Position numbers and translations under genes: made by a program. DNA of 40,855 nucleotides from Longimicrobiaceae bacterium (GTDB lineage Bacteria > Gemmatimonadota > Gemmatimonadetes > Longimicrobiales > Longimicrobiaceae), in the NCBI GenBank assembly GCA_051006015.1, contig JBPCIT010000265.1, forward strand, positions 1 through 40,855, given 5' to 3'. This document shows, piece by piece, positions 3 to 35,100 of the stretch. Every line of letters starts with the position of its first letter. The stretch's first letter is position 1. Below the pieces are notes generated by a model, which was given only the letters and a program-made list of their open reading frames with translations, had not been told where the DNA came from and did not search any database.

Positions 3-875
3 GTTCTGCTCAACGAGGCCGGAGAGCCGGTCGAGGTTTACGCCACCGGCGAGATCACGATTCGGAGCGCGCACCTGGCGCTCGGTTACTGGCGCCGACC
101 CGAGCTCACCCGTGCGGCCTTCCTGCCCGATCCCCAGGGAGGCGAGCGGCGCCTCTACCGAACCGGAGATCTGGGGCGGCTGCTGCCGGATGGCAGCATC
201 GAGTTCGTCGGGCGGCGGGACGCGCAGGTCAAGATCCGTGGCTACCGAATCGAGACCGCCGAGATCGAGAGCGCGTTGCTCGTGCACCGCGCCGTCGATC
301 AGGCAGTGGTGCTGCCACGCCGCCACGAGAATGGTGGCGAAGGAGAGCGGCAGCTCGCCGCCTATCTGGTGGTGCCCGAGGGCATCGCACAGCCCTCGCA
401 GGCCGAGCTGCGCGAGCTGCTTCGAGCGAAGCTGCCCCTGTACATGGTACCATCCGAGTACTTCTTCCTCGGCAGCCTTCCGCTCACCGCGAACGGGAAG
501 GTGGACCGGCGGGCGCTGCTCGCACTGGAGCAGCCCCAACCCGCGGCGGCGACGACGTTCGCGGCGCCGGAAGCGCCCCTCGAGCTGCTGATTGCCGGAA
601 TCTGGCGCGATCTGCTCGAGGTCGAGCAGATCGCCGTTGACGACAACTTCTATGATCTCGGCGGCCACTCGCTCCTGGCGCTGCGCTTCATCGCCCGCTT
701 CCAGGACGCTACGGGTATCCGGATCAACCCGCGAGAGCTTACTTATCAGACACTCGGGCAGCTCGCCGCCGCCCATGGCGGCGTCGCCGTACAGCTCCCC
801 GCGGGGCGACCCGGCCTGGCGTCGAAGCTCCGCCGCCGCCTGCAATGGACGGGCTTCGGCAGCGGGAGAAGTTGA
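3..875 (+). CDS. NRPS-type adenylation domain (C-terminal part) fused to a peptidyl-carrier (thiolation) domain. 5' end truncated by the window edge; the gene stops right after the carrier domain.
   Basis: Frame 3 is open from the window edge to the TGA at 873-875. Translation carries A-domain core motifs (YRTGDLGR...DGSIEFVGRRDAQVKIRGYRIE; LPLYMVPSEYFFLGSLPLTANGKVDRRAL, A8-A10) and then a carrier-domain motif (NFYDLGGHSLLALRF, phosphopantetheine Ser in GGHSL). No condensation or TE domain follows. Confidence 0.85.
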   Translation, partial: VLLNEAGEPVEVYATGEITIRSAHLALGYWRRPELTRAAFLPDPQGGERRLYRTGDLGRLLPDGSIEFVGRRDAQVKIRGYRIETAEIESALLVHRAVDQAVVLPRRHENGGEGERQLAAYLVVPEGIAQPSQAELRELLRAKLPLYMVPSEYFFLGSLPLTANGKVDRRALLALEQPQPAAATTFAAPEAPLELLIAGIWRDLLEVEQIAVDDNFYDLGGHSLLALRFIARFQDATGIRINPRELTYQTLGQLAAAHGGVAVQLPAGRPGLASKLRRRLQWTGFGSGRS

Positions 876-1768
876 AGCTCGCAGTGAGCGAGCACCGCGA
901 CATCGGGAGCGCGGTGGGTCCCCTGTCTGGAATCAACGCGGAGAGGCCGATCGTGCAGGTGAAGACGCGCAGGGAGGAGCGCCAGCCGCTGTTTTTCGGA
1001 GAGCGTTCCGAGCCGCTGTACGGTTGCTACCATCCTCCGGTGGGTGGCGGAGCGCGCGACTGCGCGGTCGTGCTCTGCTACCCATTCGGCCAAGAGTACA
1101 TCCGGTCGCACCGCTCCTTCCTTCAGCTCGCCATCCGGCTCGCCGGCCGCGGCTTTCCGGTCCTGCGCTTCGACTACTTCGGCTGCGGTGACTCCGCGGG
1201 AGAGACGGAGCAGGGACGCGTCGGGCGCTGGCTGGATGACATCGCTGCCGCGGCGCAGGAGATCCGGGTGCGCTCCGGTGCGAGCCGCCTCTGTCTGGCC
1301 GGGCTTCGGCTGGGCGGCACACTCGCCGGCCTCGCGGCCGCCGCGCAGGGGGGCGTGGACTCGCTCGTCCTCTGGGACCCGATCGTGAGCGGGCGCGCCT
1401 ACCTCGACGAGCTGAGCGCGCTACAGGCGGAGATGCTGCGCTTCGCGTACGTGGATCCGAAGCACCGGATGGGAGCCGCACTCGACGAGGTGCTCGGCTT
1501 TCCTACGCCGCCGGAGCTCCGGGCGGAACTCGAAGCCCTCGATCTGCTCGCGCTGGGCGGCAGGATCGCGGATCGCGTGCTGCTCATCGAGAGCGGATCG
1601 CCGCCCGAGCTGGCGCCGCTCCTCGCCGAGCTCCGCCGCGGCGCGGGCGAGGTCGAGCACCTGCATGTGGCGGAGCGGCGGGTCTGGCTGGCCGAGCCGT
1701 TTCGCGGCATCGTGCCGCACCAGCTGCTGGAGGCGCTCGTCGCCTGGATGGACCGGGTACACGAATGA
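845..1768 (+). CDS. alpha/beta-fold hydrolase (hydrolase 1). The nucleophile-elbow position appears to be Arg (GLRLGG). Start codon uncertain; the 845 ATG overlaps the upstream gene by 31 bp.
   Basis: 307-aa ORF. RFDYFGCGDSAG motif after the core strand. Paralogous alignment with the downstream hydrolase places AGLRLGG opposite IGNCSGA. Its stop codon overlaps the start of the next gene (ATGA). Confidence 0.7.
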   Translation: MDGLRQREKLKLAVSEHRDIGSAVGPLSGINAERPIVQVKTRREERQPLFFGERSEPLYGCYHPPVGGGARDCAVVLCYPFGQEYIRSHRSFLQLAIRLAGRGFPVLRFDYFGCGDSAGETEQGRVGRWLDDIAAAAQEIRVRSGASRLCLAGLRLGGTLAGLAAAAQGGVDSLVLWDPIVSGRAYLDELSALQAEMLRFAYVDPKHRMGAALDEVLGFPTPPELRAELEALDLLALGGRIADRVLLIESGSPPELAPLLAELRRGAGEVEHLHVAERRVWLAEPFRGIVPHQLLEALVAWMDRVHE

Positions 1769-2592
1769 GGGAATCGGTCGTACAGCTGGGGGCGGAGCGG
1801 GCGCTGGTGGGGATCCTCTCCCGGCCGCCGGCACCACGGGAGCATAGAGGCCGCACGGGGGTGATCTTCCTCAACGCCGGGCTGGTTCATCGGGTCGGTC
1901 CGAACCGCCTCCACGTGGCGATGGCGCGGAAGATCGCGGAGCGTGGGCGTGCGACGCTGCGTTTCGACCCCTCCGGCATCGGCGACAGCCGCGCCGGCGC
2001 GGGTGCCGGCAAGCTCGGCGAGCGGCGGATCGCCGAGACGCGCGCGGCGATGGACTGGCTCGGCAGCGAGACCGGCACCGACCGCTTCCTCCTGATCGGC
2101 AACTGCTCGGGGGCGGCGGTGGGCTACCTCACAGCCCACGCCGATCCACGGGTGGTCGGACTCGGATTGATCAATCCGCAGGCGCCGGTGCTGATGCGCC
2201 ACTTCCTCCGCACGGCTCTCACCCACCCGAACACCTGGCGCCGGCTGCTCGGCGGGCGCGCGAGGGTGGGGGAGCAGCTCGGGCAGCTCTTCAGTCGGTC
2301 CGAGGATGAGGCTGAACCGGAGCAAACGTACCGCGAGATACCGGAAGGATTGCGGAGGCTGGCCGAGCGCGGCGTCGATCTACTGCTCGCCTACTCCGAG
2401 TGGGATCCGGGCTACGACTACTACCGCCACATCCTGCGGCGCGAGCTCGCCGCACCGGGAGTGAAGGAGAAGATCCGCTTCGAAGTCATCCCGGGCGCCG
2501 ACCACCAGTTGAGCCTCCGCGGCACCCAGGAGCATCTCGTCCAGATCGTCGATCGCTGGCTCGCCGGAATCTCCGAGAACGGCTCGCATTGA
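1765..2592 (+). CDS. alpha/beta-fold hydrolase (hydrolase 2) with a Cys nucleophile elbow GNCSG. Paralog of the upstream hydrolase and translationally coupled to it.
   Basis: 275-aa ORF. RFDPSGIGDS, LLIGNCSGAAVGY (G-x-C-x-G) and C-terminal GADHQ (catalytic His candidate). ATG at 1765 overlaps the upstream TGA. Confidence 0.75.
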   Translation: MRESVVQLGAERALVGILSRPPAPREHRGRTGVIFLNAGLVHRVGPNRLHVAMARKIAERGRATLRFDPSGIGDSRAGAGAGKLGERRIAETRAAMDWLGSETGTDRFLLIGNCSGAAVGYLTAHADPRVVGLGLINPQAPVLMRHFLRTALTHPNTWRRLLGGRARVGEQLGQLFSRSEDEAEPEQTYREIPEGLRRLAERGVDLLLAYSEWDPGYDYYRHILRRELAAPGVKEKIRFEVIPGADHQLSLRGTQEHLVQIVDRWLAGISENGSH

Positions 2593-3273
2593 GGATTCCA
2601 CTGCACCTTGGGCGGCGGCATACTGGAATGCGGCCGCGGCGGTTGCAGCCGACGCGGCGCGCTACGCGGAGTTCGATGGCGATCTCGAACGAGTTCCTGC
2701 CCTTCCTCTGTGGATGTGCCAATGGTCGGGCCTCGGCTGCAGCTATCGCGCACGCTGCGATTCTCTGCTATATTTTCGTCGGACCGGGTTGTAGCATCGC
2801 CCGGGTTGCGCTCGGCACCAGCATCAGTTACTTCCTCTACTGGACCGCCGCGCCGGCGTTCGCACTCCGCCAGTCCGGCGGCGATCTGCAGGAGCTGCTC
2901 TCTCGATGGGCTGATCCTGCTGCGTTTCGCGGCGATGGTTTGCCTGCACAGAGTACTCGACACTGCTCCTCCCATCGAGCAGCTCGGACTCTGGGGCGGC
3001 ATCCTCCCAAGCCACCTATACAGGAGCGGTCTCTCTTGCGCCGTCTTCGCGCTTCTTCCCTTCGCCCTTCGTGCACACCCGTCCGTTGTCCGCATGCGTC
3101 GTAGCCTGCATCCTCTCCGGCAGCACTCCCGCGGTTAGCAGAGTGGCGAGCCTATCGCGCACCCCGCTCACCGGCGGCGAACCGCCGCCGGAACAGTTCA
3201 CGCCTCAGCTCCAGATGGGATCCGATCCTGGAGTTCCGGCGCACCACGCCCTCCCCTCGTTCCTGAGGCCGCG

Positions 3274-4551
3274 ATGAGCCCACTGCGCTTCTGCATGATC
3301 ACCACCTTCTATCCCCCCTACCACTTCGGGGGTGATGGAGTGAACGTGCAGCGCTTCGCGCGCGGGCTCGCGCGGCAAGGCCATGAGGTCGTGGTGATCC
3401 ATGATGTGGACGCCTACAACGCGCTGCACGATGGTCCGGAACCGCCAGCTCCGCAGGAGCAGGACGGCGTAGAGGTGGTGCGGCTGCGCAGTCGCCTGGG
3501 TGCACTCTCGCCGCTGCTGACGCACCAGCTCGGCCAGCCCATCGTTCACGGCGGGAAGATCCGGCAGATCCTCGATCGCGGGCGCTTCGATGTCATCCAC
3601 TATCACAACATCTCATTGGTAGGCGGACCCGGCATCCTCGCGGCGGGCAAGGCGCTCAAGGTCTACACGGCGCGCGAGCACTGGCTGGTCTGCCCCAGTA
3701 ACGTGCTCTGGCGACACGGGCGCGAGCTCTGCACCGGCCGCGAATGCACCCGCTGCGTGCTGAACCACGGCCGTCCACCGCAGCTCTGGCGCTACACCGA
3801 CTATCTCGAGCAGCAGCTCGATCACGTGGACCTCTTCATCGCCCTGAGCGAGTTCAGCCGGGAGAAGCACCGGGAGTTCGGCTTCCATCGCCCGATGGAG
3901 GTTCTTCCCAACCTCCTCGCAGATACGGCTGCGGAGGTTTCGATCCCTGCCGGCGATCCGCCGAACGAGCGCCCGTACTTTCTCTTCGTCGGCCGCATCG
4001 AGCGCATCAAGGGGCTGGATGATGTGGTGCCGGTCTTCCACTCCTATCCGGACGCGGACCTGCTGATCGCCGGTACCGGCGACCACGCGCCGGTGATCCG
4101 GAAGCTGGCAGCCGGCAACCCGCGGGTGAAGTTCCTGGGCCAGGTTCCTCCGGAGGAGCTGGCACGCTACTACCACCACGCGCTCGCTCTCCTGGCGCCT
4201 TCCGTGTGCTATGAAACCTTCGGCGTGATCCTGATCGAGGCCTTCCGGCTCTCCACCCCGGTAATCGCCCGCCGTATCGGTCCCTTCCCGGAGATCGTCG
4301 AGCGCTCTGGCGGCGGCGAGCTCTTCTCGACGCCGCAGGAGCTGGTGGCGGCGATGCGGCGCCTGCAGGCGGACGCCGCGCTGCGCCGACGCATGGGCGT
4401 GGCGGGACACAACGCCTTTCTCCGGAACTGGTCCGAGTCTGCGGTCATTCCGCGCTATCTCGAACTCGTCCGCCGGACCGCCGAGCGGAAGGGCAACTCC
4501 CGCGTCGCCGCGGCGCTGGAGGGCGAGCGGACGCTGTCTGCGGCTTCCTGA
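3274..4551 (+). CDS. GT4-family (GT-B fold) glycosyltransferase.
   Basis: 425-aa ORF. N-terminal FYPPYHFGG with a HEVVV acceptor-domain pattern. C-terminal donor-binding E-x7-E motif (CYETFGVILIEAF...PVIA). Confidence 0.85.
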   Translation: MSPLRFCMITTFYPPYHFGGDGVNVQRFARGLARQGHEVVVIHDVDAYNALHDGPEPPAPQEQDGVEVVRLRSRLGALSPLLTHQLGQPIVHGGKIRQILDRGRFDVIHYHNISLVGGPGILAAGKALKVYTAREHWLVCPSNVLWRHGRELCTGRECTRCVLNHGRPPQLWRYTDYLEQQLDHVDLFIALSEFSREKHREFGFHRPMEVLPNLLADTAAEVSIPAGDPPNERPYFLFVGRIERIKGLDDVVPVFHSYPDADLLIAGTGDHAPVIRKLAAGNPRVKFLGQVPPEELARYYHHALALLAPSVCYETFGVILIEAFRLSTPVIARRIGPFPEIVERSGGGELFSTPQELVAAMRRLQADAALRRRMGVAGHNAFLRNWSESAVIPRYLELVRRTAERKGNSRVAAALEGERTLSAAS

Positions 4552-4569
4552 GGACCGCTTCGACGGCAG

Positions 4570-5217
4570 ATGCACGACGACCTCCACAGGCAGGCCTCGA
4601 GCGCTCATTATTTTCAACAGGAGTACGACGATCTACCCCGCTTCATCTCCTACTTCTACCAGGTCGATCTCGTCAGGAGCCTGCAGCCACGGAGCGTTCT
4701 CGAGATCGGCGTCGGCAACAAGACGGTCGCGAATTACCTTCGGCAGAATGGAATCGAGATCAGCACCTGCGACATCGACGCGGAGCTGCACCCCGATTAT
4801 GTCGCCGACGTACGCACCCTCCCCTTCCCCGACGACAGCTACGACGTGGTGATGGCGTGCGAGGTGCTGGAGCACCTCCCCTGGTCCGATCTGGAGCGGG
4901 CGCTGCGTGAGCTGCACCGAACGACCCGACGCTTCGTACTGCTTTCCCTTCCCCACGCTTCCGCCGCTCTGGAGGTCGTCCTCCGGAATCCTCTGCCCCC
5001 GCGGATGCTGAAGACACCGTTCTTCGGCGTCTCGGTGCGGATGCCGCTCTTCTTCACGAGGACCGCTTCGACCGGCGAGCACCACTGGGAGATCGGACGG
5101 AGGAGCTTCCCCGCCCGCCGGATCCGCGCCGCATTGAGGAAGCATTTTACGATTCGCCGCGAGGTCCGGCCCGCTCTGCACTCCTACCACCACTTCTTCG
5201 TTCTCGAGAAGAGATAG
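4570..5217 (+). CDS. class I SAM-dependent methyltransferase.
   Basis: 215-aa ORF. Motif I VLEIGVGNK (GxGxG), acidic motif II CDID, motif III VVMACEVLEHL. Confidence 0.8.
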   Translation: MHDDLHRQASSAHYFQQEYDDLPRFISYFYQVDLVRSLQPRSVLEIGVGNKTVANYLRQNGIEISTCDIDAELHPDYVADVRTLPFPDDSYDVVMACEVLEHLPWSDLERALRELHRTTRRFVLLSLPHASAALEVVLRNPLPPRMLKTPFFGVSVRMPLFFTRTASTGEHHWEIGRRSFPARRIRAALRKHFTIRREVRPALHSYHHFFVLEKR

Positions 5218-5310
5218 CCCGCCGCCAGACGAGCCGCGGAGCGGAGGCGCGCAGGGTGGCCGCGTGCCCGCCAGAGCGCCCGTTGAGCGGATTCCAAGCA
5301 GTGTGGGTCG

Positions 5311-6267
5311 TCAGCTCCCCGAACGCAGCCGCTCTCGCAGGAACTGCAGGATGGTGCAGGTCGAGGCGCGGAAGCGCGGCTCGGCGCTGAACTCGGGCAC
5401 GCTGTGCCCCACCCCGGGCAGCTCGATCAGCGTAGCAGGCACGCCGGCGGAGCGCAGAGAGTCGCGCATGGAACGAGACTGGCGGATCGGCACCACCTCG
5501 TCCGCCGTGCCGTGGATGAGCAGGAAAGGAGGGTCGCCCGCGCTCGCGTGCACCGCGGGAGAGGCGAGCAGCGCCCGCGCCGGGTCGGCTTCCGGACGAG
5601 CTCCCAGGAAGTTCTCCACCATCGAGCGCTGCCCGGAATCGAGCGCACCTGCGGTGCGGATGTCGTGCGGGGCTGCGATCGCGACCACGGCGCTCACCGC
5701 GGGCGAGACGTCTCGCAAAGGGCAGGCGCCGTCGAGCCCTTCGACTTCCGCGGCCGTGCCGAGCATCGCCGCGAGGTGCCCACCCGCGGAGCTGCCCAGG
5801 GCGGCAATGCGCGATGGATCGATGTCGTAGGTCGCGGCATTGGCGCGGAGCCACCGCACTGCGCAGCGCACGTCCTCCACCGCGGCCGGAAAGACGTTGC
5901 GAGGCGCCGCCACCAGCCGATAGCTCACCGACGCCGCCGCGTACCCCTGCCCCGCCAGAAGGCGCATGCTGGAATGATAGGCGCTCCTGTCGCCCGCGCT
6001 CCAGCCGCCACCGTGAATGAGCACCACCAGCGGGTGCGGCCCGACATGCTCCGGCCAGGCGATGTCCAGCCGCTGGACCTGCCCATCCATCTCCGCGTAG
6101 GTGACGTTCCCGGCCAGGTTGATGTCGGCCGGACCCGGCGTCCGCGGAATGCTGCACTCCCGGACGATCGCCATTGACTCGCCGCCCGCCTCGCCCGAGG
6201 TCATCGGCGGGGAGACCCCTGCACACGCGCTCAGCAGCAACAGAGCCGAGGCGAAGCTTTGCTTCAT
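5311..6267 (-). CDS. lipoprotein esterase/lipase, alpha/beta hydrolase (HGGG oxyanion hole, GSSAGG nucleophile elbow).
   Basis: Real start taken at the internal ATG (6265-6267), giving MKQSFASALLLLSAC with lipobox LSAC. HGGGW and GSSAGGHLAA motifs, and a C-terminal HGTADEVV region carrying the catalytic Asp/His. Its start abuts the stop of the upstream gene. Confidence 0.8.
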   Translation of the reverse strand: MKQSFASALLLLSACAGVSPPMTSGEAGGESMAIVRECSIPRTPGPADINLAGNVTYAEMDGQVQRLDIAWPEHVGPHPLVVLIHGGGWSAGDRSAYHSSMRLLAGQGYAAASVSYRLVAAPRNVFPAAVEDVRCAVRWLRANAATYDIDPSRIAALGSSAGGHLAAMLGTAAEVEGLDGACPLRDVSPAVSAVVAIAAPHDIRTAGALDSGQRSMVENFLGARPEADPARALLASPAVHASAGDPPFLLIHGTADEVVPIRQSRSMRDSLRSAGVPATLIELPGVGHSVPEFSAEPRFRASTCTILQFLRERLRSGS

Positions 6268-6893
6268 TCCCGCGCGAGAAGCTCGGCTGGCGATATCCAC
6301 TGTCCGAGCGGCAACTGCACCCCCTGCCAGGTGACCAGCTCGTCCACCGGGGTTGGCCCGCCGATCCGGACGGCCGCGATGCTTCTCAGCCCCTGAACAT
6401 GGTCTGGGGAGAGCCAGCTGTTGACGGTCGGATCCCACACCTCGACGCCGCTCTCAGAGAAAACCGCACATGCCTCATGGTATGCCAGACCGTCGCCCGC
6501 CCATTCCGGCGAGGCGTTGCCGGTCATCCACCACCCGTGGAAGTGAGGAAGGTGGTGGCGCTCCTGGCGCTGCACGAGCTGCACAGGTAGGACCCGGCGG
6601 GAGTACGCGCTGAACGCCTCGATCGTCAGCGCCGCGTGGGCGCCGCAGTCGAGCTCTTCGGCATCCAGGGCGTCGCACCAGTGCAGCGGCCAGCGCGTCG
6701 GACCCCAGGGGAAGCGCTGCGCGATCCACCCCGGGCCGCCCTGCCCTCGCCACATCGAGCGGTTCATCGCCATGAACCAGCTGCGCGCGGTCGTACAGCA
6801 ATCGGCGCCATGATGCGTGAGAGTCGAGGGCACCCATGCCTCCCAGGGTGCCCAGGACTGAACTCGTGTCGGCTCAGCAACAAGCATCTTCAA
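6264..6893 (-). CDS. hypothetical Trp-rich protein, possibly with a transglutaminase-like / papain-like Cys-His-Asp core.
   Basis: 209-aa ORF in the operon between the ATP-grasp/decarboxylase fusion and the esterase. Candidate triad context: LDCGAHAAL, HFHGWW, VWDPTV (TGase-like cores often show a C in G-x-C, an H followed by aromatics, and a D in DPT). Weak and unverified. Confidence 0.5.
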   Translation of the reverse strand: MKMLVAEPTRVQSWAPWEAWVPSTLTHHGADCCTTARSWFMAMNRSMWRGQGGPGWIAQRFPWGPTRWPLHWCDALDAEELDCGAHAALTIEAFSAYSRRVLPVQLVQRQERHHLPHFHGWWMTGNASPEWAGDGLAYHEACAVFSESGVEVWDPTVNSWLSPDHVQGLRSIAAVRIGGPTPVDELVTWQGVQLPLGQWISPAELLARE

Positions 6894-9159
6894 GTACTCC
6901 CCTGCCGAAGTTGTAGGCCATGCTGGCGTCGTAGGCGCCAGCGTCTCCGATCACCAAGCAGTCACCCGGCCGGAGCGATTCCGGCACCGCCAGATCCGTG
7001 GCCAGGATGTCCGTCTCCATGCAGATCCGCCCGAGCAGTCGATCGGATCCGCCTCCAAGCACCTCCCACTCGCCGCCCGTGGAGCGGCCGTACACGCGGT
7101 GCGGATAGAAGGACGCCATCGGTAGGTCCGATATCGCCGCGTCCACGACAACCTCGGCTCCGCCTTTCTCGTGCTTGCGCACCTCCAGCACGGTGGTGAC
7201 CAGCGCCATCGTCGGCTGTGCGACCGCCTTGCCGGGCTCGACGAAGAATCGTTGCAGCCCCGGAAGGGTCTCGGCCGCGGCTCCGACCAACTCTTCCAGC
7301 CGGGGCAACAGCTCCGCATCGAAGTCGTCGGGGAACCACCCGCCACCCGAATCGAGGCAGCGCACCGGTCGGCCCACTCCCTGCTCGATCGCGTGCGCCC
7401 AGTGGATCACGCTCTGGAACACCTCCCGCCAGCGTGAGGGGCCGATCACATCGCTGGCGAAATGGAAGTGCACCCCGATCTCCTGCTCGGGCGGAAGCTC
7501 CTTCAGCAGGGCGAGCGTCTCGGCGAAGCGGCTGGGTGTGTCCATCGTCGCGCCGAAGCGCGACGGGACGGTCACGGGCCGCAGCCGGATGCCGAGGTAG
7601 CGGGCCGCGGGAGCGCCCTCGCACATCCAGCGCGCGAAGCTCTGCGGGGAGTCGGCGAACGCGGCCATCAACGCACCGTCGGGCGCCGGGCCGAATGGCC
7701 AGTGCTGGGCGGGGCCGTTCAGAATGATGCGCTCGGCGGGAAAGCCGGCGGCGAGGGCGTGCTGCATCTCCGCGCGGCTGATCACCTCGGCGAACATCCC
7801 GGCCTCCTCCGCGAGCGCGACCAGAGTCGGGTGGGGGTTGGTCTTGATGCTGTAGCCGAAGCCGAGCTCGACGCCCAGCGGGAACTCGGCGGTGGCGCGC
7901 TCGATCTGAGCGAAGCGCGCGCGGGTCGTGTGCGGCAGAAGAATGCGGCGTGGTGTGGCGGAGTCACCAACCAGAGCGCTCGCCAGGTCCTTTTCCACCG
8001 TGACCGGCATCGGCGCCGGCGCTCGGCGGGGCTTCTCCTGCTCAGGCCGTCCGCCGTTCTTGCGGGCTGCGTCCAGCCGCCGCGCCAGGTCAGGCATTCC
8101 CGAGGGGTGCTTCGAGCCGACCTGCCATTCGTCCAGCGGAGCTTTGACGGCGGGCAGCGGATACTGCGGATGCACCGGGATCTCCACGACGACGCGGGTG
8201 AACTGGGCGGCTCGGAAGGGCACCGCCGCCGCCGTTCCGAAACCCGCCGCCTCGACGACCCGCGCCGGGAGGTTGTGCCCCGCGAAGCTCGCGGCGTGGA
8301 TCCAGGCGGGGAACCGGGGGTTCCAGTCGATCAACTGGAGGGTGCCGTCCACGGCGCGCACGAACTCCAGCTCCCCACCGCCCGTCCACTCCAGCTCGGC
8401 GACCACCTCGCGCAGCGGCTCGACGATCGCGGGGTCAGCCGCGGAGACGCGTCCGGCCCACGTCTTCCCCTCCGCCGTCTGCGTCTGCTTGCGCATGTGA
8501 ACGCAGTCGAGCAGCTCGCCCTGATAGGCGCAGAAGGCGAACGACTCCTCGGTACCGAGCACATGCCGCTGCACGAATACCTTCTCGGTGCTCCAGGTGT
8601 CGGAGAGCACAGTGCGGGCGTTGCGGAACGAGGGCCAGTCACGTACGCGCATCGCCTCGTAGTTCGGACCCTTCACCCATACACGCCACCCATGCTGACG
8701 ACAGAAGCTGTGCAGCTCCCAGTCGGAGCGGTCCACCGAGATGAACTCCGGGATCACGAAGGGCAGCTTTCGCGCAGCCTCGATCGACGGTTTGGCGACC
8801 TGCGCAAGCGCGCCCGCCGGTGGAAGGAAGGCCCGGCTGCTGTCGGTGAGCGCGCCAGCCAGCCAATCGACCTCCAGATCCTGCCCCGCGAACCAGAGTG
8901 CCCCCGCGTCGAGGACCGACTGGATCGCCGCCTGATAAAGGGGAAGCTGAAGCTCCTTCCACGGACGCTGCAGCCAGATGTCGTCGAAGACGTCGCTGTG
9001 CAGCCCGGAGCTCTCTACGGAGTAGTCGACCGCGACGAGGTGAGCGTGGGGAAAGGCCTGCCGGAGGGAGAGTGCCACCCCGAGCCCGGGTGAGGGGTTG
9101 GGACCGCTGTGCACACCGCTGAGATAACACGTAAGTCGGCCATCGGCTTCTGCTCGCAT
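6874..9159 (-). CDS. fusion protein: N-terminal ATP-grasp carboxylate-amine ligase domain joined to a C-terminal fold-type-III PLP-dependent decarboxylase (Orn/DAP/Arg decarboxylase family) domain.
   Basis: 761-aa ORF. ATP-grasp hallmarks in the N-half: a CYLSG...GPNP Rossmann-like pre-domain, central VKGPNYEA / VQRHVLGTEESF, and GGELEFVRAVDGTLQLIDWNPRF (E-x-N-P-R). The C-half (from about residue 400) matches DAP-decarboxylase-type motifs: GFGYSIKTNPHP (PLP lysine), AERIILNGP, LDSGGGWF, EPGKAVA, and C-terminal VIGDAGAYDASMAYNFGRG. Confidence 0.85.
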   Translation of the reverse strand: MRAEADGRLTCYLSGVHSGPNPSPGLGVALSLRQAFPHAHLVAVDYSVESSGLHSDVFDDIWLQRPWKELQLPLYQAAIQSVLDAGALWFAGQDLEVDWLAGALTDSSRAFLPPAGALAQVAKPSIEAARKLPFVIPEFISVDRSDWELHSFCRQHGWRVWVKGPNYEAMRVRDWPSFRNARTVLSDTWSTEKVFVQRHVLGTEESFAFCAYQGELLDCVHMRKQTQTAEGKTWAGRVSAADPAIVEPLREVVAELEWTGGGELEFVRAVDGTLQLIDWNPRFPAWIHAASFAGHNLPARVVEAAGFGTAAAVPFRAAQFTRVVVEIPVHPQYPLPAVKAPLDEWQVGSKHPSGMPDLARRLDAARKNGGRPEQEKPRRAPAPMPVTVEKDLASALVGDSATPRRILLPHTTRARFAQIERATAEFPLGVELGFGYSIKTNPHPTLVALAEEAGMFAEVISRAEMQHALAAGFPAERIILNGPAQHWPFGPAPDGALMAAFADSPQSFARWMCEGAPAARYLGIRLRPVTVPSRFGATMDTPSRFAETLALLKELPPEQEIGVHFHFASDVIGPSRWREVFQSVIHWAHAIEQGVGRPVRCLDSGGGWFPDDFDAELLPRLEELVGAAAETLPGLQRFFVEPGKAVAQPTMALVTTVLEVRKHEKGGAEVVVDAAISDLPMASFYPHRVYGRSTGGEWEVLGGGSDRLLGRICMETDILATDLAVPESLRPGDCLVIGDAGAYDASMAYNFGRGVLEDACC

Positions 9160-9306
9160 GCACTACTCCACTCCGTGATGTGAATACTCACCGCCCAGGC
9201 CGCCTTGCGGGTGGGAAGAACGTGTCTCTCAGGAACCATCATACAGGTGAGCCTGCTCGAGAGCCGGACTGCGATCCGCAGCGCTCCCTGCCGACTCGGC
9301 CACCGC

Positions 9307-9864
9307 TTACAAGGAGAGCGCCATGACCTGGCGCGGGATCTCCGGCGCATCCGGCGCTCGCGAAGCCTGGATCGCCTGGATCCAGCGCGGTGGCGAGGAC
9401 AGGTTCACGGGCGCCACGATCGTGAACCCCTGGCGTTGCAGCGGAGCCCAGCGGATCGGCGGGGCGACACACCAGATGGTGCGGCACCCGATCTCTCTCG
9501 CCTTGCGGATGCGAATCTGGTCCAGCGCATGACTCAGCCCGCGGCGCTGATACTCCGGATGCACGACCAGCCGGTTGAGAGACGCGATTGGAGCGGGTGG
9601 ATCGATTCCCACCCCGATGAAGAACCCGGCATCCGGCAGCGATCGCACGTCGTCATGCACACACATGCGCGCCGCGGCGATCAACCGGCCCCCATCGCGC
9701 ACCACCCAGTGCATGGCGTGCTCGTCATGCTCGTCCTCGCACACATCGGCCGGGAAACTGCCGTCCCGAAGCACACCAACCGACTTCCACGACTCGATCC
9801 GCAGGCCGAAGACGACCTCCCGCAGGAGATCCGTTTCCCCTGGCTGGATGAGCTGCGGCATCAT
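9307..9864 (-). CDS. GNAT-family N-acetyltransferase.
   Basis: 185-aa ORF. Motif A LVVHPEYQRRGLSHAL (Q/R-x-x-G-x-G/A-like CoA-binding). Same strand as the ATP-grasp/decarboxylase gene and 147 bp upstream of it. Confidence 0.75.
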   Translation of the reverse strand: MMPQLIQPGETDLLREVVFGLRIESWKSVGVLRDGSFPADVCEDEHDEHAMHWVVRDGGRLIAAARMCVHDDVRSLPDAGFFIGVGIDPPAPIASLNRLVVHPEYQRRGLSHALDQIRIRKAREIGCRTIWCVAPPIRWAPLQRQGFTIVAPVNLSSPPRWIQAIQASRAPDAPEIPRQVMALSL

Positions 9865-14552: not shown

Positions 14553-16260
14553 AGTACCTCCCTACCTCTTCCAGCGCCCAGGTATTGAGCACCTGCCGCG
14601 CCTCCAGTCCTCCCTTGCGCGCGATGTTCACCCCGAAGACCACGTGCTCGAGGCCGTCCACCGAGTGGGCATCGGGGTTGATGGCGATCAGCACACCGCG
14701 CTCGGCGGCGTAGCGCAGGTGGCGCCAGTCGAGGTCCAGCCGGTGCGGATTTGCGTTGATCTCGACCACCACGCCATGCTCAGCCGCGGCATCGAGCACC
14801 GCCTCGACGTCCAGCGGATACCCCTCACGGGTGAGCAGCAGCCGCCCGGTAGGGTGGCCGAGGATGGTGAGATACGGATTCCGCACGGCCCGGAGCACGC
14901 GCTCCGTCATCTCCTCGCGCGAGATGCCGAAGCCCGAATGCACGGAGCCCACTACGTAGTCGAAGCTCGCCAGCACCTCGTCGGGGTAATCCAGGCTGCC
15001 GTCGGGAAGGATGTCGGACTCGGTGCCCTTGAAGATGCGAAAGCCACTCGCGGCGTTCGCCTGATTCCAGGCGTCGATCTCGCGCTGCTGCTCGCGCACC
15101 CGCTCGATCGCGAGTCCGCCGGCATAAGCCGCAGCGCGCGAGTGGTCGGCGAGGCCGAGGTAGGACCAGCCGCGCTCGCGGGCGGCCTCCGCCATCTCCG
15201 CGACCGTAGCCTTGCCGTCGGAGTAGGTGGTGTGGCAGTGGAAGGTGCCCCGCAGGTCGTCAAGCTCGACGAGCCGGGGGAGCGGGCCCGCGTCGGCCAA
15301 CGCGACCTCCCCCATCCCCTCGCGCAGCTCCGGCGGGACGTAGGCGAGGCCGAGCCTCTCGTAGAGCAAACTCTCATCCGCGAGCTGCACGAGCTGGTCG
15401 CCCTGCCAGAGACCGTCGGAATCGAGGCGCAGCCCCGCTGCGGCGGCACGCTCCACCAGCTCGCGGAGATGAGCGTCGCTGCCCGTCTGCCAGAGGAGCG
15501 CTCCCGTGAAGCGCTCGGGCGGCACACAGCGGAGGCGCGCGCGCAGCCCGTCCGTCAGCTCGACCAGCGCGTGCTCTCCCCCGCCCCGCTCGACCACCTG
15601 CGTCACCCCGTTGAGCTGCACGAACGCCTCGACCAGGGTGCTCGTCTCCTCGGCGCTGGCGACCAGCTCGACGGTCTCCACGATCTCGAGGCGGCGCCGC
15701 AGCGGGCCCGCGATCTCGGCGTAGTGGACGCCGGGCCGCTCACGCAGCCAGAGCAGCAGCCGCACCGCCACCTCGAGCGCCTCCGGGTAGCGCCGGCGGC
15801 CGCGGCTGGTGCGCATGAAGGCGAGCCCCGCCAGGATCTTCTTCTCGGTGCGGGCGCCGAAGCCGGAGAGACTGGCGATCCGTCCGGCGCGGGCCGCCTC
15901 CTCGAGCGCATCGAGCGAATCGATCCCCAGCGCCTCGTGCAGCGTGTGGATGCGCTTCGCTCCCAGACCGGGAATCCTGAGCAGGTCGTAGAGGCCGATG
16001 GGGGTGGCGGTCTTCAATTCCTCGTAGAGGGTCGAGCGGCCGGTCTCGACCAGCTCGCGGATCGTCTCGGCGATCGCGGGTCCGACGCCGCTGAGGGAGG
16101 TGAGCGTCCCTTCGCGCGCCAGCGCCTCGAGGTCCACGTCCGAGCCTTCGAGCGAGCGCGCGGCGCTCGCGAAGGCGCGGCTGCGGAAGGGGTTCTCGCC
16201 GTTCAGCTCGGAGAGAGTGGCGATCTCGGCGAGCACGCGTGCCAGGTCGGCACGCGTCAA
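14527..16260 (-). CDS. polX: family X DNA polymerase (PolX) with a C-terminal PHP phosphoesterase domain. TTG start overlaps the upstream stop (TTGA).
   Basis: 577 aa from the TTG at 16258-16260 (MTRADLARVLAEIATL...). HhH motifs (GVGPAIAE, IPGLGAKR), a pol-beta-like core, and a PHP domain (FHCHTTYSDGKATV, HSGFG, NPDAHS). The 836-aa track ORF is an upstream out-of-context extension. Confidence 0.85.
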   Translation of the reverse strand: MTRADLARVLAEIATLSELNGENPFRSRAFASAARSLEGSDVDLEALAREGTLTSLSGVGPAIAETIRELVETGRSTLYEELKTATPIGLYDLLRIPGLGAKRIHTLHEALGIDSLDALEEAARAGRIASLSGFGARTEKKILAGLAFMRTSRGRRRYPEALEVAVRLLLWLRERPGVHYAEIAGPLRRRLEIVETVELVASAEETSTLVEAFVQLNGVTQVVERGGGEHALVELTDGLRARLRCVPPERFTGALLWQTGSDAHLRELVERAAAAGLRLDSDGLWQGDQLVQLADESLLYERLGLAYVPPELREGMGEVALADAGPLPRLVELDDLRGTFHCHTTYSDGKATVAEMAEAARERGWSYLGLADHSRAAAYAGGLAIERVREQQREIDAWNQANAASGFRIFKGTESDILPDGSLDYPDEVLASFDYVVGSVHSGFGISREEMTERVLRAVRNPYLTILGHPTGRLLLTREGYPLDVEAVLDAAAEHGVVVEINANPHRLDLDWRHLRYAAERGVLIAINPDAHSVDGLEHVVFGVNIARKGGLEARQVLNTWALEEVGRYFEERRERR

Positions 16261-17123
16261 GCGCCGCCCTCGCCGAAGGTGACACGCTGAAAGTCGAGGC
16301 GCGAGGTGCGGCCGGTCTCCTGCTGCGAGCCGGTGCGCGTCTCGGGCGCCTCGTGGGGGCGGACATCCAGCGGGTGCGCAGCGATGTACCAGATGGCGCG
16401 CGCGAGCAGCTTGAGCGCCTCGGCGGTGGTGAGGATCGAGTAGAGGCCGCTGATCTCGCCGCCGGGGAGGATGTTCTCGAAGTCGCGGGCGGCCTCGCGG
16501 CCGGGGGTCTCCGCCCACACCGCGGGGATGCCCGGACCGACCTGGGTGTCGAAGGGGATCACGCTGAAACCGGCGCGTTCCCGCCGGATGCCGAGGACGA
16601 GGAGCAGCTCGAGCCGCTGGTAGGGACCGGCGACCGGGCCCTCCGCGTGAGAGGCGGTGGCGAAGAAGCCGTCCACCGGCTCCGGCGTGCTCTCGGGGGA
16701 GATGCTCGCCCAGAAGAGGTTGGCGGGAAGCTGCACGTAGAGGCTGGGATAGGGCAGCGCGAACTCCCATCCCTGTAGCTTGGGCGCGGCCTCGACGAGG
16801 TACCGGGCGAGCGCCGTGTCGAGCAGGTACGCCCGCTTGCCGAAGCGCCAGAAGTTGAAGGCGTGGTAGAGGAGCACGCGGTACTCCTCGGCCGCTTCCG
16901 GCGGCATCTCCTCGGGGACGACGTCGCGCAGGGCATCGCCGCCCACCGTCAGAAAGGCGAAGCGGTCCCGCTGCGCCGGATCGATGCCCGCGGTCTCCGC
17001 CTCCCGTTCGAGGGAGGGAAAGATCCGGGTCTCCCACTCCGCCGCACCGAACGCCAGCTCGTATGGGGTGAGCCGCGCGGCGCCCCGGGCGCCGTCCTGC
17101 GGCTGCTCATACTCCTTCTGCAT
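16257..17123 (-). CDS. conserved hypothetical protein, first gene of the PolX-nth operon.
   Basis: About 288 aa from the ATG at 17123 (MQKEYEQP...), with GGGAG upstream. No recognisable motif. Its stop is fused with the PolX start. Confidence 0.55.
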   Translation of the reverse strand: MQKEYEQPQDGARGAARLTPYELAFGAAEWETRIFPSLEREAETAGIDPAQRDRFAFLTVGGDALRDVVPEEMPPEAAEEYRVLLYHAFNFWRFGKRAYLLDTALARYLVEAAPKLQGWEFALPYPSLYVQLPANLFWASISPESTPEPVDGFFATASHAEGPVAGPYQRLELLLVLGIRRERAGFSVIPFDTQVGPGIPAVWAETPGREAARDFENILPGGEISGLYSILTTAEALKLLARAIWYIAAHPLDVRPHEAPETRTGSQQETGRTSRLDFQRVTFGEGGA

Positions 17124-17169
17124 CACACGTAACTCCCGCGTTTGCCGCCGCTCCGCGTTCCGGCGGCGC

Positions 17170-18048
17170 TCATTCTCCCGCCCGCGCTTCCAGCCAGTCG
17201 CGCAGCAGCGGCCAGATCTCCTGGCGGGCATTGCGGCTGACGATCAGCTCCGCATGCCCGTACTCCTCGAGAAATCCCTGCCGGGTGCCGGCGAGCACCA
17301 GCGTGCGGTCCTCGGAGCCGAAGCGCCCGGCCAGGTCGCGGACCGCCTCCGGCGGCGCAAGCCACCGGTCGCCCGCGCCGGCCAGCGCCAGCAGCGGGAC
17401 CTCCACGGCATCTAGCGCGTCAAGGTAGTCACCCCCGTCGCTGCCGCGCCAGGCGCCGTGCAGATTCCAGCCCATCCACTGGCGGATCAGGGGCGTCGGC
17501 TCCGGCTCGGGACCCAGACCGAGCAGCGTTCCCGGCACTGCTGCCCGCGGGAAGAGGCCGGCCGCGAGGTGGCCGGAGCGTGCCACCCAGCGGCGGAGGC
17601 CGCTTACCCCGGCGGGCCCCGGCGCACCGATCAGCACCAGACCCCGCAGCCGCGCGGCGAGCTGCGGACACGCTCCCACGGCCGCCGCACCCACCACCCC
17701 TCCCGCACTGTGCCCGACCCAGAAGCAGTCGGGCGCTCCGGTCGTGGCGAGCACCCGATCGAGGGCGGCGGGGGCGTCCTGCCGGATCCAGTCCTCCAGC
17801 GTCCAGGACGCGGGGCGCTCGCTCGCGCCATGTCCGCGCGGCTCGAGGATCCAGATGTCGAAGCCGGCCTCCGCGAGGAAGCGGCCGAAGCCCTGGCCGC
17901 GAGTGCCGAGCCAGAAGGTGCGCGTGCTGAAGGTGCCCGCCACCAGCAGCACCGGCGTCGTGTGGCGCGGCGCCCGGGGCTCCAGCCGGTGCAGCACGAT
18001 GCGTACGCCGTCGCCGGTGCGCGCCGGGTACGCGCGCGTCGGGCTCAC
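17170..18048 (-). CDS. alpha/beta-fold hydrolase (GHSAGG nucleophile elbow).
   Basis: 292-aa ORF. VGHSAGG motif and HG-x oxyanion region. Overlaps the upstream gene by ATGA. Confidence 0.75.
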   Translation of the reverse strand: MSPTRAYPARTGDGVRIVLHRLEPRAPRHTTPVLLVAGTFSTRTFWLGTRGQGFGRFLAEAGFDIWILEPRGHGASERPASWTLEDWIRQDAPAALDRVLATTGAPDCFWVGHSAGGVVGAAAVGACPQLAARLRGLVLIGAPGPAGVSGLRRWVARSGHLAAGLFPRAAVPGTLLGLGPEPEPTPLIRQWMGWNLHGAWRGSDGGDYLDALDAVEVPLLALAGAGDRWLAPPEAVRDLAGRFGSEDRTLVLAGTRQGFLEEYGHAELIVSRNARQEIWPLLRDWLEARAGE

Positions 18049-32159: not shown

Positions 32160-35100
32160 TTACGGTTGCTTCCTACGACGCGGCAGCCAGACGCGGAAGG
32201 TGCTCCCCCGGCCGAGCTCACTCTCGACCTCGACGTCGCCGCCGAGCAGCCGGCTGAACTCCCGGGCTGCCGCAAGCCCGATCCCCATGCCGCCGAATGC
32301 GCGGGTCGTGGCGTTGTCGGCCCGCCAGAATCGCTCGAAGATGTGGGCCTGGTCCTCGGGCGCGATTCCGATGCCCGTATCGCGGACCTCGAAGACAACC
32401 CGCTCCCCCTCCGCTCGTACCTCCAAATTGATCTCTCCGCGCTCAGTATACCTGACGGCGTTGCCGCACAGGTTGACGAGGATCTGGCGGGCCTTGTCGG
32501 CATCCATATCCAGCTCGACGGCCTCGTCTGGAAGGCTCAGGACCAGCGCGAGATCCTTTGCCTCCGCACTGGGCTCGACCAGCACCTTTGCCTCGCGCGC
32601 GATCATTCTCGCGTCCACCTTCTCGTACCGCACCGTCTCGCAACCCTCGTCCAGCTTTGCGAAGGTGAGGATCTCGTCGATCATGGAGGCGAGATGCCAG
32701 CCGCACACCTTGATCCGCTCGATCTTTTCCACCTGCGGTGTCGTGAGCGGCCCATCGAGGTCGAGTAGCTCGGAATAGCCGAGCATCGCAGTGAGCGGGG
32801 TACGGAATTCGTGCGACATCGTCGCCAGAAAGCTCCCCTTGAGCAGGTTCGCCGATTCGGCCGCGATCTTCGCCTCCCGCAGCTCCTCCTGGACCCGCCG
32901 TCGCGCGGTGTTGTCGACGAAGGTGAGCACGGCGCCATCGATCTCGCCCTCGGCGTAACGGTACGGGTTGATGCGGAGGATGTACCACTCGCCGGCGTCG
33001 CTCGACACCTCACGCTCGATCCGCTCCTGCGAGGTGAGCACGCTCTGCGCATCGGCGACCAGGTCGGGGTAGTCGAGCCGGTGGGTGATGTGGGCGAGCG
33101 GACGGCCCTGGTCCGTGGCGACGAAGTTGAAGAGCGTCGCGACCGACGGGGTGAACCGCCGGATCCGCATCGCGCGGTCGAGAAAGATGGTGCCGATCTC
33201 CGTGGATTCGATCAGGTTCTGGAGATCGGCGTTCGTCCGCTTCAGCTCCTCGATCGAGCTCTGGTGCTCCTGGTTGATGGTGGTGAGCTCCTCGTTGATG
33301 GACTGGATCTCCTCGCGGCTGGTCTCCAGCTCCTCGGCCGCCGCCTTCTGCTCCTCGTTGACCGACAGCAGCTCCTGGTTGGCCGACTGGAGCTCCTCCA
33401 CCGTCCGATCGCGCGCCGCGATAGTGGATTCGAGCTGCTCCTCGATCCGACGCAGCTCCTCCTCCGGGCGGGCGACCGCTCGCGGGGGGGGGGGATCCTG
33501 CAGCGCCTCTCCCTCGGCCGCCGGCTCGGTCTCAAGCAGCGCCTCTTCCTCGAAGAGGACCAGGGCGAACCTACCCGCTCTCTCGTCTCCTACCGGTGGG
33601 TTCACCCGCAGGCATAGCGGGGCACCGCCGTTGAGGCGGAGGTGGCGGGTGGTCGGCAGCCCCTTCGCAAAGGCCTGGTAGAGCGCCGTGCGCAGCTCCA
33701 TTCGCAGCTCGGGCGGGGCCAGGTCCATCAGGTCGTGGCTCGGCTCGCCCTCCGCCAGGTGCAGGTAGTCGCCGGCCCGGCCGGAGAGGTGGACCACCTC
33801 GAGCCGCTCGTCCACGACCAGGCTCGCCGGCGCGTAATGCTCGAGCATCCGCAGATGGACCGGCCCGTACGCGAACCGGTGCGGGCGGGACATCTCGATG
33901 GCATCCGCCGGTCGGCCGCCGGGCCGGGAAGGCGGATCCGCGGCCGAGAGCCGCGGCAGGACCCGGTGCGGGGTGGCGTTGCGGCGGTAGATCCGCGACG
34001 CCCGCGCGACGGGCACGAAGCGCCCGCTCTCCCCCGCCGACTCCGCCGAGCCGAGGAAGAGCAGCCCCTGCGACCGCAGCGCATAGTGGAAGGTCGCGAT
34101 CGCCTGTTCCTGAGCCGCCGGCTGGAGGTAGATGAGCAGGTTCCGGCAGCTGATCAGGTCGAGCCGCGAGAAGGGTGGGTCGTGCAACACGTTGTGGACG
34201 GCGAAGAGCACTCCCTCGCGCAGCGGCTTCTTGATCCGGTAGCCTCCCGCCTCCTGGGTGAAGTAGCGGCGGAGCCGCTCGGGCGGGATCTCCGCCACGG
34301 CAGAGGCCGGGTAGATGGCCGCGCGGCCCCGCGCGTAGCCCTTCTCGTCGATGTCGGTGGCGAAGATCTGGATCTGCGGCGGGTGCTCCAGGGTGGCCGC
34401 GTGCTCGTTCGACAGGATGGCGATCGAGTAGGCCTCCTCGCCCGTGGCGCACCCCACCACCCAGACACGCACCGCGTCATCCGGTCCCTTGCCCTCGAAG
34501 AGCGCAGGAATCGCCTCCGCCAGCGCGCTGAACGCCTCCGGATCCCGGAAAAAGGAGCTCACCGAGATCAGCAGGTCCCGCACGAGCGCCCGGGCCTCGG
34601 TCTCACTCGCCCGCAGCATCGGCAGATAGTCCTCGAGGGTCGCCGCACCATTGAAGCGCAGCCGCCGCTCGAGCCGGCGCAGGATGGTGGAGGGCTTGTA
34701 CAGGCTGAAGTCGTGGCCGGTCTTGCCACGCAGTACGGCGAAGATCTGGGCCAGCTGCGCCTGGGTGTCCCCGGGAGGCGAGTCGACCTCGAGGGGCGAC
34801 GGCATCCGCCGGAGGCGAAGCAACTCGGCGGGGACCCGCGCCGACGGTAGCACCAGGTCGATCTGCCCGGTCGCGATCGCGCTCTCCGGCATCCCGTCGT
34901 ACTCGGCTTCGTCCGGCGACTGGGCGACCGTGATGCCACCGCACTCCTTGATGTGCCGGGTCCCCGACGCGCCGTCGCTGCCGGTGCCGGAGAGCACAAC
35001 GCCGACCGCATCCGGTCCGCACGCCTCGGCGAGTGTGCGGAAGAAAAGGTCGATGGGCGAATGCTGCGGTCCGTCGCCGCGCTCCTGCAGGCGGAGGGTC

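Follow-up and report, generated by a model that had tools for sequence, protein, structure and literature searches.

Two adjacent gene modules in a Longimicrobiaceae genome: the end of a thioesterase-less NRPS with a hydrolase pair, and an ATP-grasp/decarboxylase fusion with a transglutaminase-fold partner

The left end of a 40,855-nt stretch of DNA from a Longimicrobiaceae bacterium (the whole stretch is referred to here as the window) carries two convergent groups of genes between positions 3 and 9864. The first of these, module 1 (3–5217, forward strand), consists of the 3′ end of a nonribosomal peptide synthetase (NRPS) gene that is cut at window base 1, followed by two alpha/beta-hydrolase-fold proteins designated HydA and HydB, a glycosyltransferase, and a methyltransferase. 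Facing it on the reverse strand is an operon in which an acetyltransferase of the GNAT family precedes a fusion of an ATP-grasp ligase with a fold-III decarboxylase dependent on pyridoxal phosphate (PLP), a tryptophan-rich protein with a transglutaminase (TGase)-like fold, and an esterase (Table 1); the fusion and the TGase-like protein together make up module 2 (6264–9159). An earlier note on this DNA had described these nine genes, and its gene and domain calls were almost all correct; listing of open reading frames (ORFs), translation, and a GC1/GC2/GC3 screen (which gave genic patterns) placed the genes as it had, and both Pfam and NCBIfam agreed with the domain identities. Its proposal that the convergent operons form one pathway built around a carrier protein was not supported by comparison with other genomes. 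The genes present, the patterns of their conservation, the folds, and the motifs that are kept were observed and are described below; they make it likely that the two modules are independent of one another.

Table 1. Features of the region studied, in window coordinates
Feature	Position	Strand	Supporting evidence and remarks
Adenylation (A) domain, C-terminal part, plus peptidyl carrier protein (PCP) domain	3–875	+	AMP-binding_C E = 3e-13; PP-binding E = 3.4e-16
HydA, alpha/beta-hydrolase fold	845 (ATG) or 872 (TTG) to 1768	+	TIGR03101 kin, below cutoff
HydB, alpha/beta hydrolase	1765–2592	+	TIGR03100 kin, below cutoff; start overlaps HydA stop as ATGA
No convincing gene	2593–3273		No ORF with genic GC3; no Rfam hit
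GT4 glycosyltransferase	3274–4551	+	Glycos_transf_1 E = 1e-24; Glyco_transf_4
Class I S-adenosylmethionine-dependent methyltransferase	4570–5217	+	Methyltransf_11 E = 2.7e-13
BD-FAE / Abhydrolase_3 esterase, predicted lipoprotein	5311–6267	-	BD-FAE E = 1.3e-54; lipobox LLLSAC
Trp-rich protein of 207–209 aa, TGase-like fold	6264–6893	-	Confidently predicted fold; no Pfam or NCBIfam family
ATP-grasp/Orn-DAP-Arg decarboxylase fusion, 761 aa	6874–9159	-	Pfam and NCBIfam
GNAT	9307–9864	-	Acetyltransf_1 E = 4.6e-10; Acetyltransf_5 24.0 bits, above the 22.4 cutoff

Module 1 was compared with 85 HydA loci (a metagenome scan yielded at least 468 confirmed HydA matches) and module 2 with 80 genome loci drawn from 467 one-genome-per-species matches to the fusion protein, giving about 165 comparison loci altogether. 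Homologues of the A-PCP end, HydA, HydB, the GT4 protein, and the methyltransferase occurred in 0/80 of the module 2 loci by tblastn (E ≤ 1e-5), and the same search found the esterase and the window GNAT in none of them (0/80). The fusion, the decarboxylase, and the TGase-like ORF were likewise absent from the HydA loci (0/85), even when sought with hidden Markov models (HMMs) at E = 0.01; a single weak ATP-grasp-like ORF was seen among these loci. The flanking genes of module 2 differ even in relatives whose fusions are 73–75% identical to that of the window (L001 and L002). The modules are conserved separately and never together elsewhere, and would therefore be two independent units that meet only in this window. 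Adjacency by accident of genome arrangement is, on balance, the probable and best explanation of the locus as a whole.

The contrary proposal, that of the earlier note, is a single pathway in which the PCP would be loaded, the ATP-grasp enzyme would extend the loaded unit, the PLP enzyme would decarboxylate it in the manner of BtrI/J/K, and either the hydrolase pair or the TGase-like protein would transfer it to a glycosylated, methylated acceptor. In the butirosin and closthioamide pathways, the ATP-grasp enzyme (BtrJ or CtaD) attaches an amino acid to a carrier protein and extends it there, the fold-III decarboxylase (BtrK or CtaF) acts on the tethered amino acid, and a papain-like transacylase (BtrH or CtaG) then carries out the transfer, all of which has been documented under the name of “noncanonical thiotemplated” (NCT) pathways (PMC7183216). 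The components of such a pathway, namely a PCP, an ATP-grasp enzyme, a fold-III decarboxylase, and a Cys-His-Asp enzyme, are all present inside the same 10 kb; moreover, a PCP is encoded at 95% of the loci with a CtaD-type ATP-grasp (Dunbar et al., PMC7183216), and the exosortase-A cassette, going by its NCBIfam names, brings hydrolases 1 and 2 together with a decarboxylase. Against this stands the complete lack of co-occurrence described above, together with the convergent arrangement of the operons, which are not co-transcribed. In relatives, moreover, the PCP is part of the final module of an assembly line. The TGase-like protein differs in type from CtaG and BtrH, and the fusion and its partner have no nearby carrier in 79 of the 80 loci. 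The one PP-binding ORF found within 10 kb of a fusion (by HMM, among six-frame ORFs) lies some 7 kb away from it, and near the window fusion the sole PCP is the one that forms the final domain of the NRPS. A single pathway thus seems quite unlikely, and nothing was found to support the associated claim that an acidic amino acid is loaded onto the PCP. A specificity code was extracted (DAMHVGGVAK, Stachelhaus-type, approximate, obtained by way of a GrsA reference); it is not diagnostic and gave no reliable substrate call.

The first gene of module 1 had been taken for a stand-alone adenylation-thiolation didomain, a view corrected by its truncation and by its relatives, in which the equivalent sequence is the last module of a multimodular NRPS or polyketide synthase (PKS)-NRPS. 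NRPS models of NCBIfam also match the 3–875 product, which contains the A10 motif NGKVDR and an LGGHSL motif whose GGHS serine is the phosphopantetheine site of the PCP. Its stop codon (873–875) falls about 35 aa past the PCP, in a tail that lacks a thioesterase (TE). No terminal TE, R, or C-type release domain follows the window PCP, and the relatives likewise end in PP-binding. Exact-sequence look-ups with three window proteins gave no match; a 3-kb metagenome contig that is 98% identical (L086) adds 227 aa of the A domain and does not reach a start codon. Among the HydA loci, the A-PCP end is positioned directly 5′ of HydA in 72 of the 85, the remainder mostly being without upstream sequence. 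Where the sequence reaches 5 kb or more upstream, most loci contain at least two A-PCP matches there; the usual pattern in well-covered loci is two or three such matches at a spacing of 3–6 kb. Gene calls and Pfam show the upstream genes of relatives to be of the C-A-PCP-C-A-PCP type, with PP-binding last and no TE, and the upstream gene of the closest long relative (L082, 62% identical) reads AT-KR-ACP-C-A-PCP. As judged from these sequences, module 1 is probably the 3′ end of a large TE-less NRPS or PKS-NRPS cluster. The earlier note had allowed that the gene might continue into a normal multimodular NRPS with its own TE and unrelated neighbours; multimodularity was indeed found upstream in relatives, but these lines have no TE of their own, and their hydrolase neighbours are conserved.

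The genes that follow are closely packed, with the overlapping stop and start codons that had been reported. The TTG start of HydA overlaps the NRPS stop (TTGA, 872–875), and its alternative ATG start would fall inside the NRPS gene. HydB lies directly 3′ of HydA in 76 of the 85 loci. The two had been called paralogous, and they are homologous, but only distantly so (29% identity over 119 aa, E = 4e-7), and they match different NCBIfam models. HydA resembles TIGR03101 (exosortase-A hydrolase 2) with 104.7 bits, against a cutoff of 202.75 and over model positions 2–154 of 266 only, and HydB resembles TIGR03100 (exosortase-A hydrolase 1) with 100.6 bits, against a cutoff of 168.45. The proposed kinship to the exosortase-A hydrolases is accordingly real but below the family cutoffs. 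HydA has an arginine instead of a nucleophile, in a GLRLG(G/A) elbow that is present in 79/79 distinct homologues, and the homologues share no conserved C-terminal His. In the alignment of the two proteins, this residue (Arg155) is placed opposite Cys114 of HydB, the putative nucleophile of the latter (GNCSG); the GxCSGA motif and H247 of HydB are kept in at least 90% of 60 homologues.

Two partial metagenome proteins (P0200 and P0207) combine an A10 motif, a PCP, and a HydA-like domain with a GLR(I/L)G elbow in one frame, and HydA can therefore occupy the position of a TE. The general arrangement recalls termination by a type I TE, since an alpha/beta unit comes right after the last PCP in both, and on some contigs HydA is fused at the TE position. 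The differences are that module 1 splits the function over two proteins and that the HydA at the TE position has neither a nucleophile nor a catalytic His. HydA with its arginine and HydB with its cysteine have the appearance of a split, TE-replacing alpha/beta pair, uncharacterised, that comes after hundreds of NRPS lines. In the mechanism proposed here, HydA would dock on the terminal PCP and have no catalytic part, and HydB would accept the completed chain as a Cys114 thioester; the chain would then leave HydB by hydrolysis, cyclisation, or transfer. Cysteine nucleophiles of this kind are known from transacylating or cyclising TEs and from polyhydroxyalkanoate (PHA) synthases. A literature search for hydrolases of the TIGR03100/03101 type found no paper.

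Another system with which module 1 can be compared is the exosortase-A cassette (TIGR03098–03101), where HydB is nearest to hydrolase 1 and HydA to hydrolase 2. Both systems pair two mutually distant alpha/beta hydrolases beside an adenylating enzyme and a carrier domain. In contrast to the cassette, which has a single ligase and an acyl carrier protein, HydA and HydB are partnered by a multimodular NRPS, and no decarboxylase occurs in the 85 HydA loci. The other two cassette models fell far short in the window, with 102.2 bits against a cutoff of 592.35 for the ligase (TIGR03098) and 35.0 against 478.45, over 58 matched residues, for the decarboxylase (TIGR03099). No exosortase A, PEP-CTERM, or exopolysaccharide genes were present among the window ORFs scanned.

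The remaining genes of module 1 are less constant. Of the 85 HydA loci, just 6 have GT4 genes, in about four distinct contexts, and the window GT4 is 67% identical to the one that directly follows HydB in L082 and L083. It is in the closest relatives alone that a GT4 gene comes after HydB. No methyltransferase homologue is present in any of the 85, which marks it as lineage-specific. In this lineage, the GT4 protein and the methyltransferase might decorate the product or an acceptor. HydB and the GT4 gene abut in L082; in the window they are separated by 680 nt (2593–3273) containing two hydrophobic ORF pieces in different forward frames, which may be what is left of a decayed or frameshifted small membrane gene. 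Scans of 1–12 kb with Rfam and for promoters and terminators gave nothing meaningful.

The central protein of module 2 is the fusion, in which residues ~1–345 (nt ~8125–9159) form the ATP-grasp ligase and residues ~400–761 (nt ~6874–7962) the fold-III PLP decarboxylase; the linker between the halves, of partly lower confidence, holds an invariant KHPSG motif. Catalytic motifs were checked in 18 and 16 diverse sequences for the two halves. The ATP-grasp residues K163, E263/E265, N280, and R282 are invariant, as are K439 (in YSIKTNP) and the HFH, GGGW, EPGK, CMExD, and GAYD motifs of the PLP half. Structural comparison places the decarboxylase half at a similar distance from SbnH (24.2), diaminopimelate decarboxylase (23.8), the decarboxylase of N-citrylornithine (23.7), a putative decarboxylase of carboxynorspermidine (23.5), and BtrK (23.4), and the ATP-grasp half is closest to carbamoyl phosphate synthetase-like ATP-grasp (14.3) and then to PylC (12.1); a PDB profile search with the latter half gave weak biotin-carboxylase matches only. 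The LysA model TIGR01048 scored 106.9 bits against a cutoff of 297.9, and the decarboxylase is therefore not an ordinary LysA; no lys operon context for the fusion appeared in any locus inspected. The earlier note would have yielded to an ordinary LysA/SpeA orthologue with no carrier context elsewhere, and half of this was found: carrier context is lacking elsewhere, but the decarboxylase is not an ordinary LysA/SpeA.

The fusion is rarely alone. A TGase-like homologue directly follows it in 77 of the 80 loci, and the other three loci are cut by contig ends or are too short. The gap between the two genes, as extrapolated, has a median of −11 nt and a range of −44 to +34 nt. An HMM search of 1.84 billion representatives recovered 361 members of the TGase-like family, almost all of them stand-alone proteins of ~200 aa. 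The predicted structure places a putative triad of C81 (DCGA, at the N-terminus of a helix), H137 (YHE), and D152 in a papain-like core, with the His and Asp on the following beta-strands, as in the TGase-like superfamily. The Cys and His of this triad are invariant in the family; C71 is invariant as well, and a CC pair is nearly so. Compared with TGase-like condensation catalysts and with amide synthases of the arylamine N-acyltransferase type (AdmF of andrimid, GdmF), the protein shows no detectable sequence similarity (7–13% identity when structurally aligned), is much smaller, and has its own Trp-rich signature, WGPxxWPxxWC...DCGA...YHE. Rare longer members occur in the representative library: P0316 is extended at its C-terminus by 380 aa that contain a CX8CX2C motif and gave no Pfam match, and in P0364 a GNAT is linked to the TGase-like domain. 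P0356, which with its 944 aa appears to be a triple fusion, was set aside as Rosetta-stone evidence because its junction resembles a frameshifted decarboxylase C-terminus. The literature search for ATP-grasp/decarboxylase fusions and TGase-like partners found no paper on such a system.

The resemblance of module 2 to butirosin biosynthesis, which had been noticed early on, was upheld as regards the combination of ATP-grasp, fold-III decarboxylase, and cysteine enzyme. With the NCT systems (BtrI/BtrJ/BtrK/BtrH and CtaE/CtaD/CtaF/CtaG) it shares an ATP-grasp that looks catalytically intact and a PLP decarboxylase of the Orn/DAP/Arg family; it differs in the dedicated carrier, which is present in 95% of CtaD-homologue loci (PMC7183216) as opposed to 1/80 of the module 2 loci. 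The “ligate, decarboxylate, transfer” scheme of butirosin and closthioamide is the best analogy for module 2, probably with the dedicated carrier left out; a logic that combines an ATP-grasp, a fold-III decarboxylase, and a papain-like transacylase has experimental precedent (PMC7183216, PMC12865890).

Decarboxylation of an N-acylated amino acid is also a feature of the siderophore routes of staphyloferrin B (SbnH), rhizoferrin (FslC), and vibrioferrin (PvsA/PvsE), and SbnH, FslC, and BtrK as a group are enzymes that decarboxylate N-acylated or tethered amino acids. A carrier-free route is favoured for module 2 because SbnH and FslC offer a precedent without a carrier, both of them decarboxylating N-citryl amino acids once a ligase has acted. 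The likeness goes no further, as the surroundings of module 2 lack NIS synthetase genes, siderophore transporter or receptor genes, and citrate-handling enzymes, and the siderophore routes have no counterpart of the TGase-fold partner. We infer every chemical step and all substrates. The ATP-grasp half would activate a carboxylate as an acyl phosphate and join it to an amino acid, or else join an amino acid to a nucleophile. The fused decarboxylase would then strip the alpha-carboxylate of the ligated amino acid, and the TGase-fold protein, with its Cys-His-Asp triad, would transfer or hydrolyse the acyl or amide unit so formed, with no dedicated carrier protein taking part.

Conceivably, module 2 could itself be thiotemplated in the NCT manner, its carrier being encoded elsewhere or the invariant cysteines of the TGase-fold protein serving as a covalent carrier. 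The enzyme triad is of the same kind as BtrJ/K/H and CtaD/F/G (PMC7183216), the genes are tightly coupled, and the two invariant cysteines and nearly invariant CC pair of the partner would lend themselves to such a function. This reading is nevertheless of low probability, given that a carrier ORF is missing from 79 of the 80 neighbourhoods, where nearly all CtaD loci possess one, and that a carrier of TGase fold would be without precedent.

A further means by which module 2 could act is through the modification of a protein or peptide, whereby the ATP-grasp half would add an amino acid to a side chain or to the C-terminus, as do RimK and tubulin-tyrosine ligase, the decarboxylase would trim it, and the TGase-fold protein would be an eraser (vasohibin-like) or a cross-linker. 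No conserved third gene for a protein or peptide substrate lies beside the pair in Gemmatimonadota. Fold-III decarboxylases, moreover, are known to act on free, N-acylated, and carrier-tethered amino acids and not on proteins, and the recurrent accessory genes (a GNAT and a small, putatively oxygenase-like protein) are typical of small-molecule tailoring. Protein modification is regarded as quite unlikely.

The small protein just mentioned belongs to a family of ~220 aa, “up267”, encoded beside the pair in 60 of 83 loci, including L020 (9157–9960, −) and L168 (6864–7529, −). It has no Pfam or PADLOC match, nor any PDB match by profile search; its invariant motifs AH(R/K)DH and NQFHG may mark a 2-His-1-carboxylate oxygenase. 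Members are 52–78% identical across Acidobacteriota, Sphingomonadales, and Abditibacteria, often occur as two tandem copies in Pyrinomonadaceae, and are absent from the window and from the Gemmatimonadota loci. A mutually orthologous GNAT accompanies the pair in nine loci. The window GNAT, which sits 147 nt upstream of the fusion, was considered as a representative of it and rejected, having no similarity to it; no homologue of the window GNAT was found in 82 other module 2 loci. By kind, the window protein is Acetyltransf_5/FeeM-like (N-acyl amino acid synthase-like), with a sub-threshold FeeM match of 21.7 bits. The likely start of the lipoprotein esterase, at 6267 (MKQSFASALLLLSAC, lipobox), overlaps the stop of the TGase-like gene as ATGA, and the two genes are translationally coupled. 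An esterase homologue of 49.5% identity stands beside the pair in L167, and a more sensitive search detected a weaker one ~5 kb from the start of the fusion in L078; other loci are without it. Both the window GNAT and the esterase would appear to be local add-ons. No PADLOC defence-system match was obtained for the fusion, the TGase-like partner, the window GNAT, the esterase, or “up267”.

Full-length homologues of the fusion protein number more than 888, and the 467 matches of the one-genome-per-species scan span several bacterial phyla and one Bathyarchaeia archaeon. Carriers include Longimicrobiaceae, Pyrinomonadaceae and other Acidobacteriota, Allosphingosinicella/Sphingomonas, Caulobacteraceae, Polaromonas, Janthinobacterium, Pseudomonas akapageensis, and Chloroflexi. 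On one Longimicrobiaceae-like metagenome contig (L081, 2354–6848), the pair lies a few kb from genes for a Mu-like transposase (DDE_2, Mu-transpos_C), a MuB-like ATPase, and a repressor. The distribution of the pair is patchy and its spread probably horizontal, and these Mu-like neighbours would fit with such a history.

Several points weigh against the reading of two independent modules with the functions proposed above. The modules are, after all, physically adjacent, with the NRPS PCP only ~6 kb from the fusion, and cross-talk between them in this particular genome is conceivable. In the exosortase-A cassette as defined by NCBI, hydrolases 1 and 2 stand together with a ligase and a fold-III decarboxylase, so that hydrolases of this sort are functionally tied to such a decarboxylase in another system. 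A carrier that serves module 2 might also lie at some other place in the genome. The multimodular nature of the window NRPS is extrapolated from homologues of 45–62% identity, and the suggested non-catalytic role of HydA and release role of HydB are read from motifs.

A more specific reading of both modules together can also be put forward. Here, module 2 would be a minimal, carrier-free two-protein machine for ligation, decarboxylation, and transfer in which an invariant cysteine of the partner holds an aminoacyl thioester, leading to an omega-amino-acyl or N-acyl-diamine metabolite, and HydA/HydB would be a two-protein system, not recognised before, for release from NRPS lines that lack a TE; horizontal spread would have proceeded by way of soil Acidobacteriota, Sphingomonadales, Gemmatimonadota, and other phyla, reaching at least one archaeal genome. 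In this full form, the proposal is speculative and rather unlikely.

The GC content of ~68% and the nearest homologues are in keeping with a Longimicrobiaceae (Gemmatimonadota) genome. Beyond position 9864, the window continues with housekeeping genes for a permease, an HD protein, a class II aminoacyl-tRNA synthetase, and endonuclease III, and the remainder is ordinary chromosome. Two long ORFs, 14644–16287 (+) and 16257–17243 (−), belong to no Pfam family, and no ORF with the usual GC3 bias was seen in the 14.5–16.3 kb interval. Further along are a large CheB-CheR-PAS-HisKA-HATPase hybrid protein (32160–35501, −), a zinc-ribbon/adenylate-cyclase/AAA/TPR protein (36307–39600, +), and, at the right end, an encapsulin (Linocin_M18) shell gene (39630–40553, +).

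Biosynthetic genes that lie together are read as a single cluster by genome-mining tools, which can mislead, as this window illustrates. What is left after the modules are separated are two uncharacterised and widespread units, HydA/HydB and the ligase-decarboxylase fusion with its partner. The protein family of this partner has neither a name nor a Pfam model, and the unit occurs in ~470 species genomes, including those of cultured Sphingomonas and Pseudomonas. Solving either module would give non-ribosomal biosynthesis one more strategy for release or ligation, and solving HydA/HydB would also give a function to the unexplained exosortase-associated hydrolases 1 and 2, their nearest relatives.

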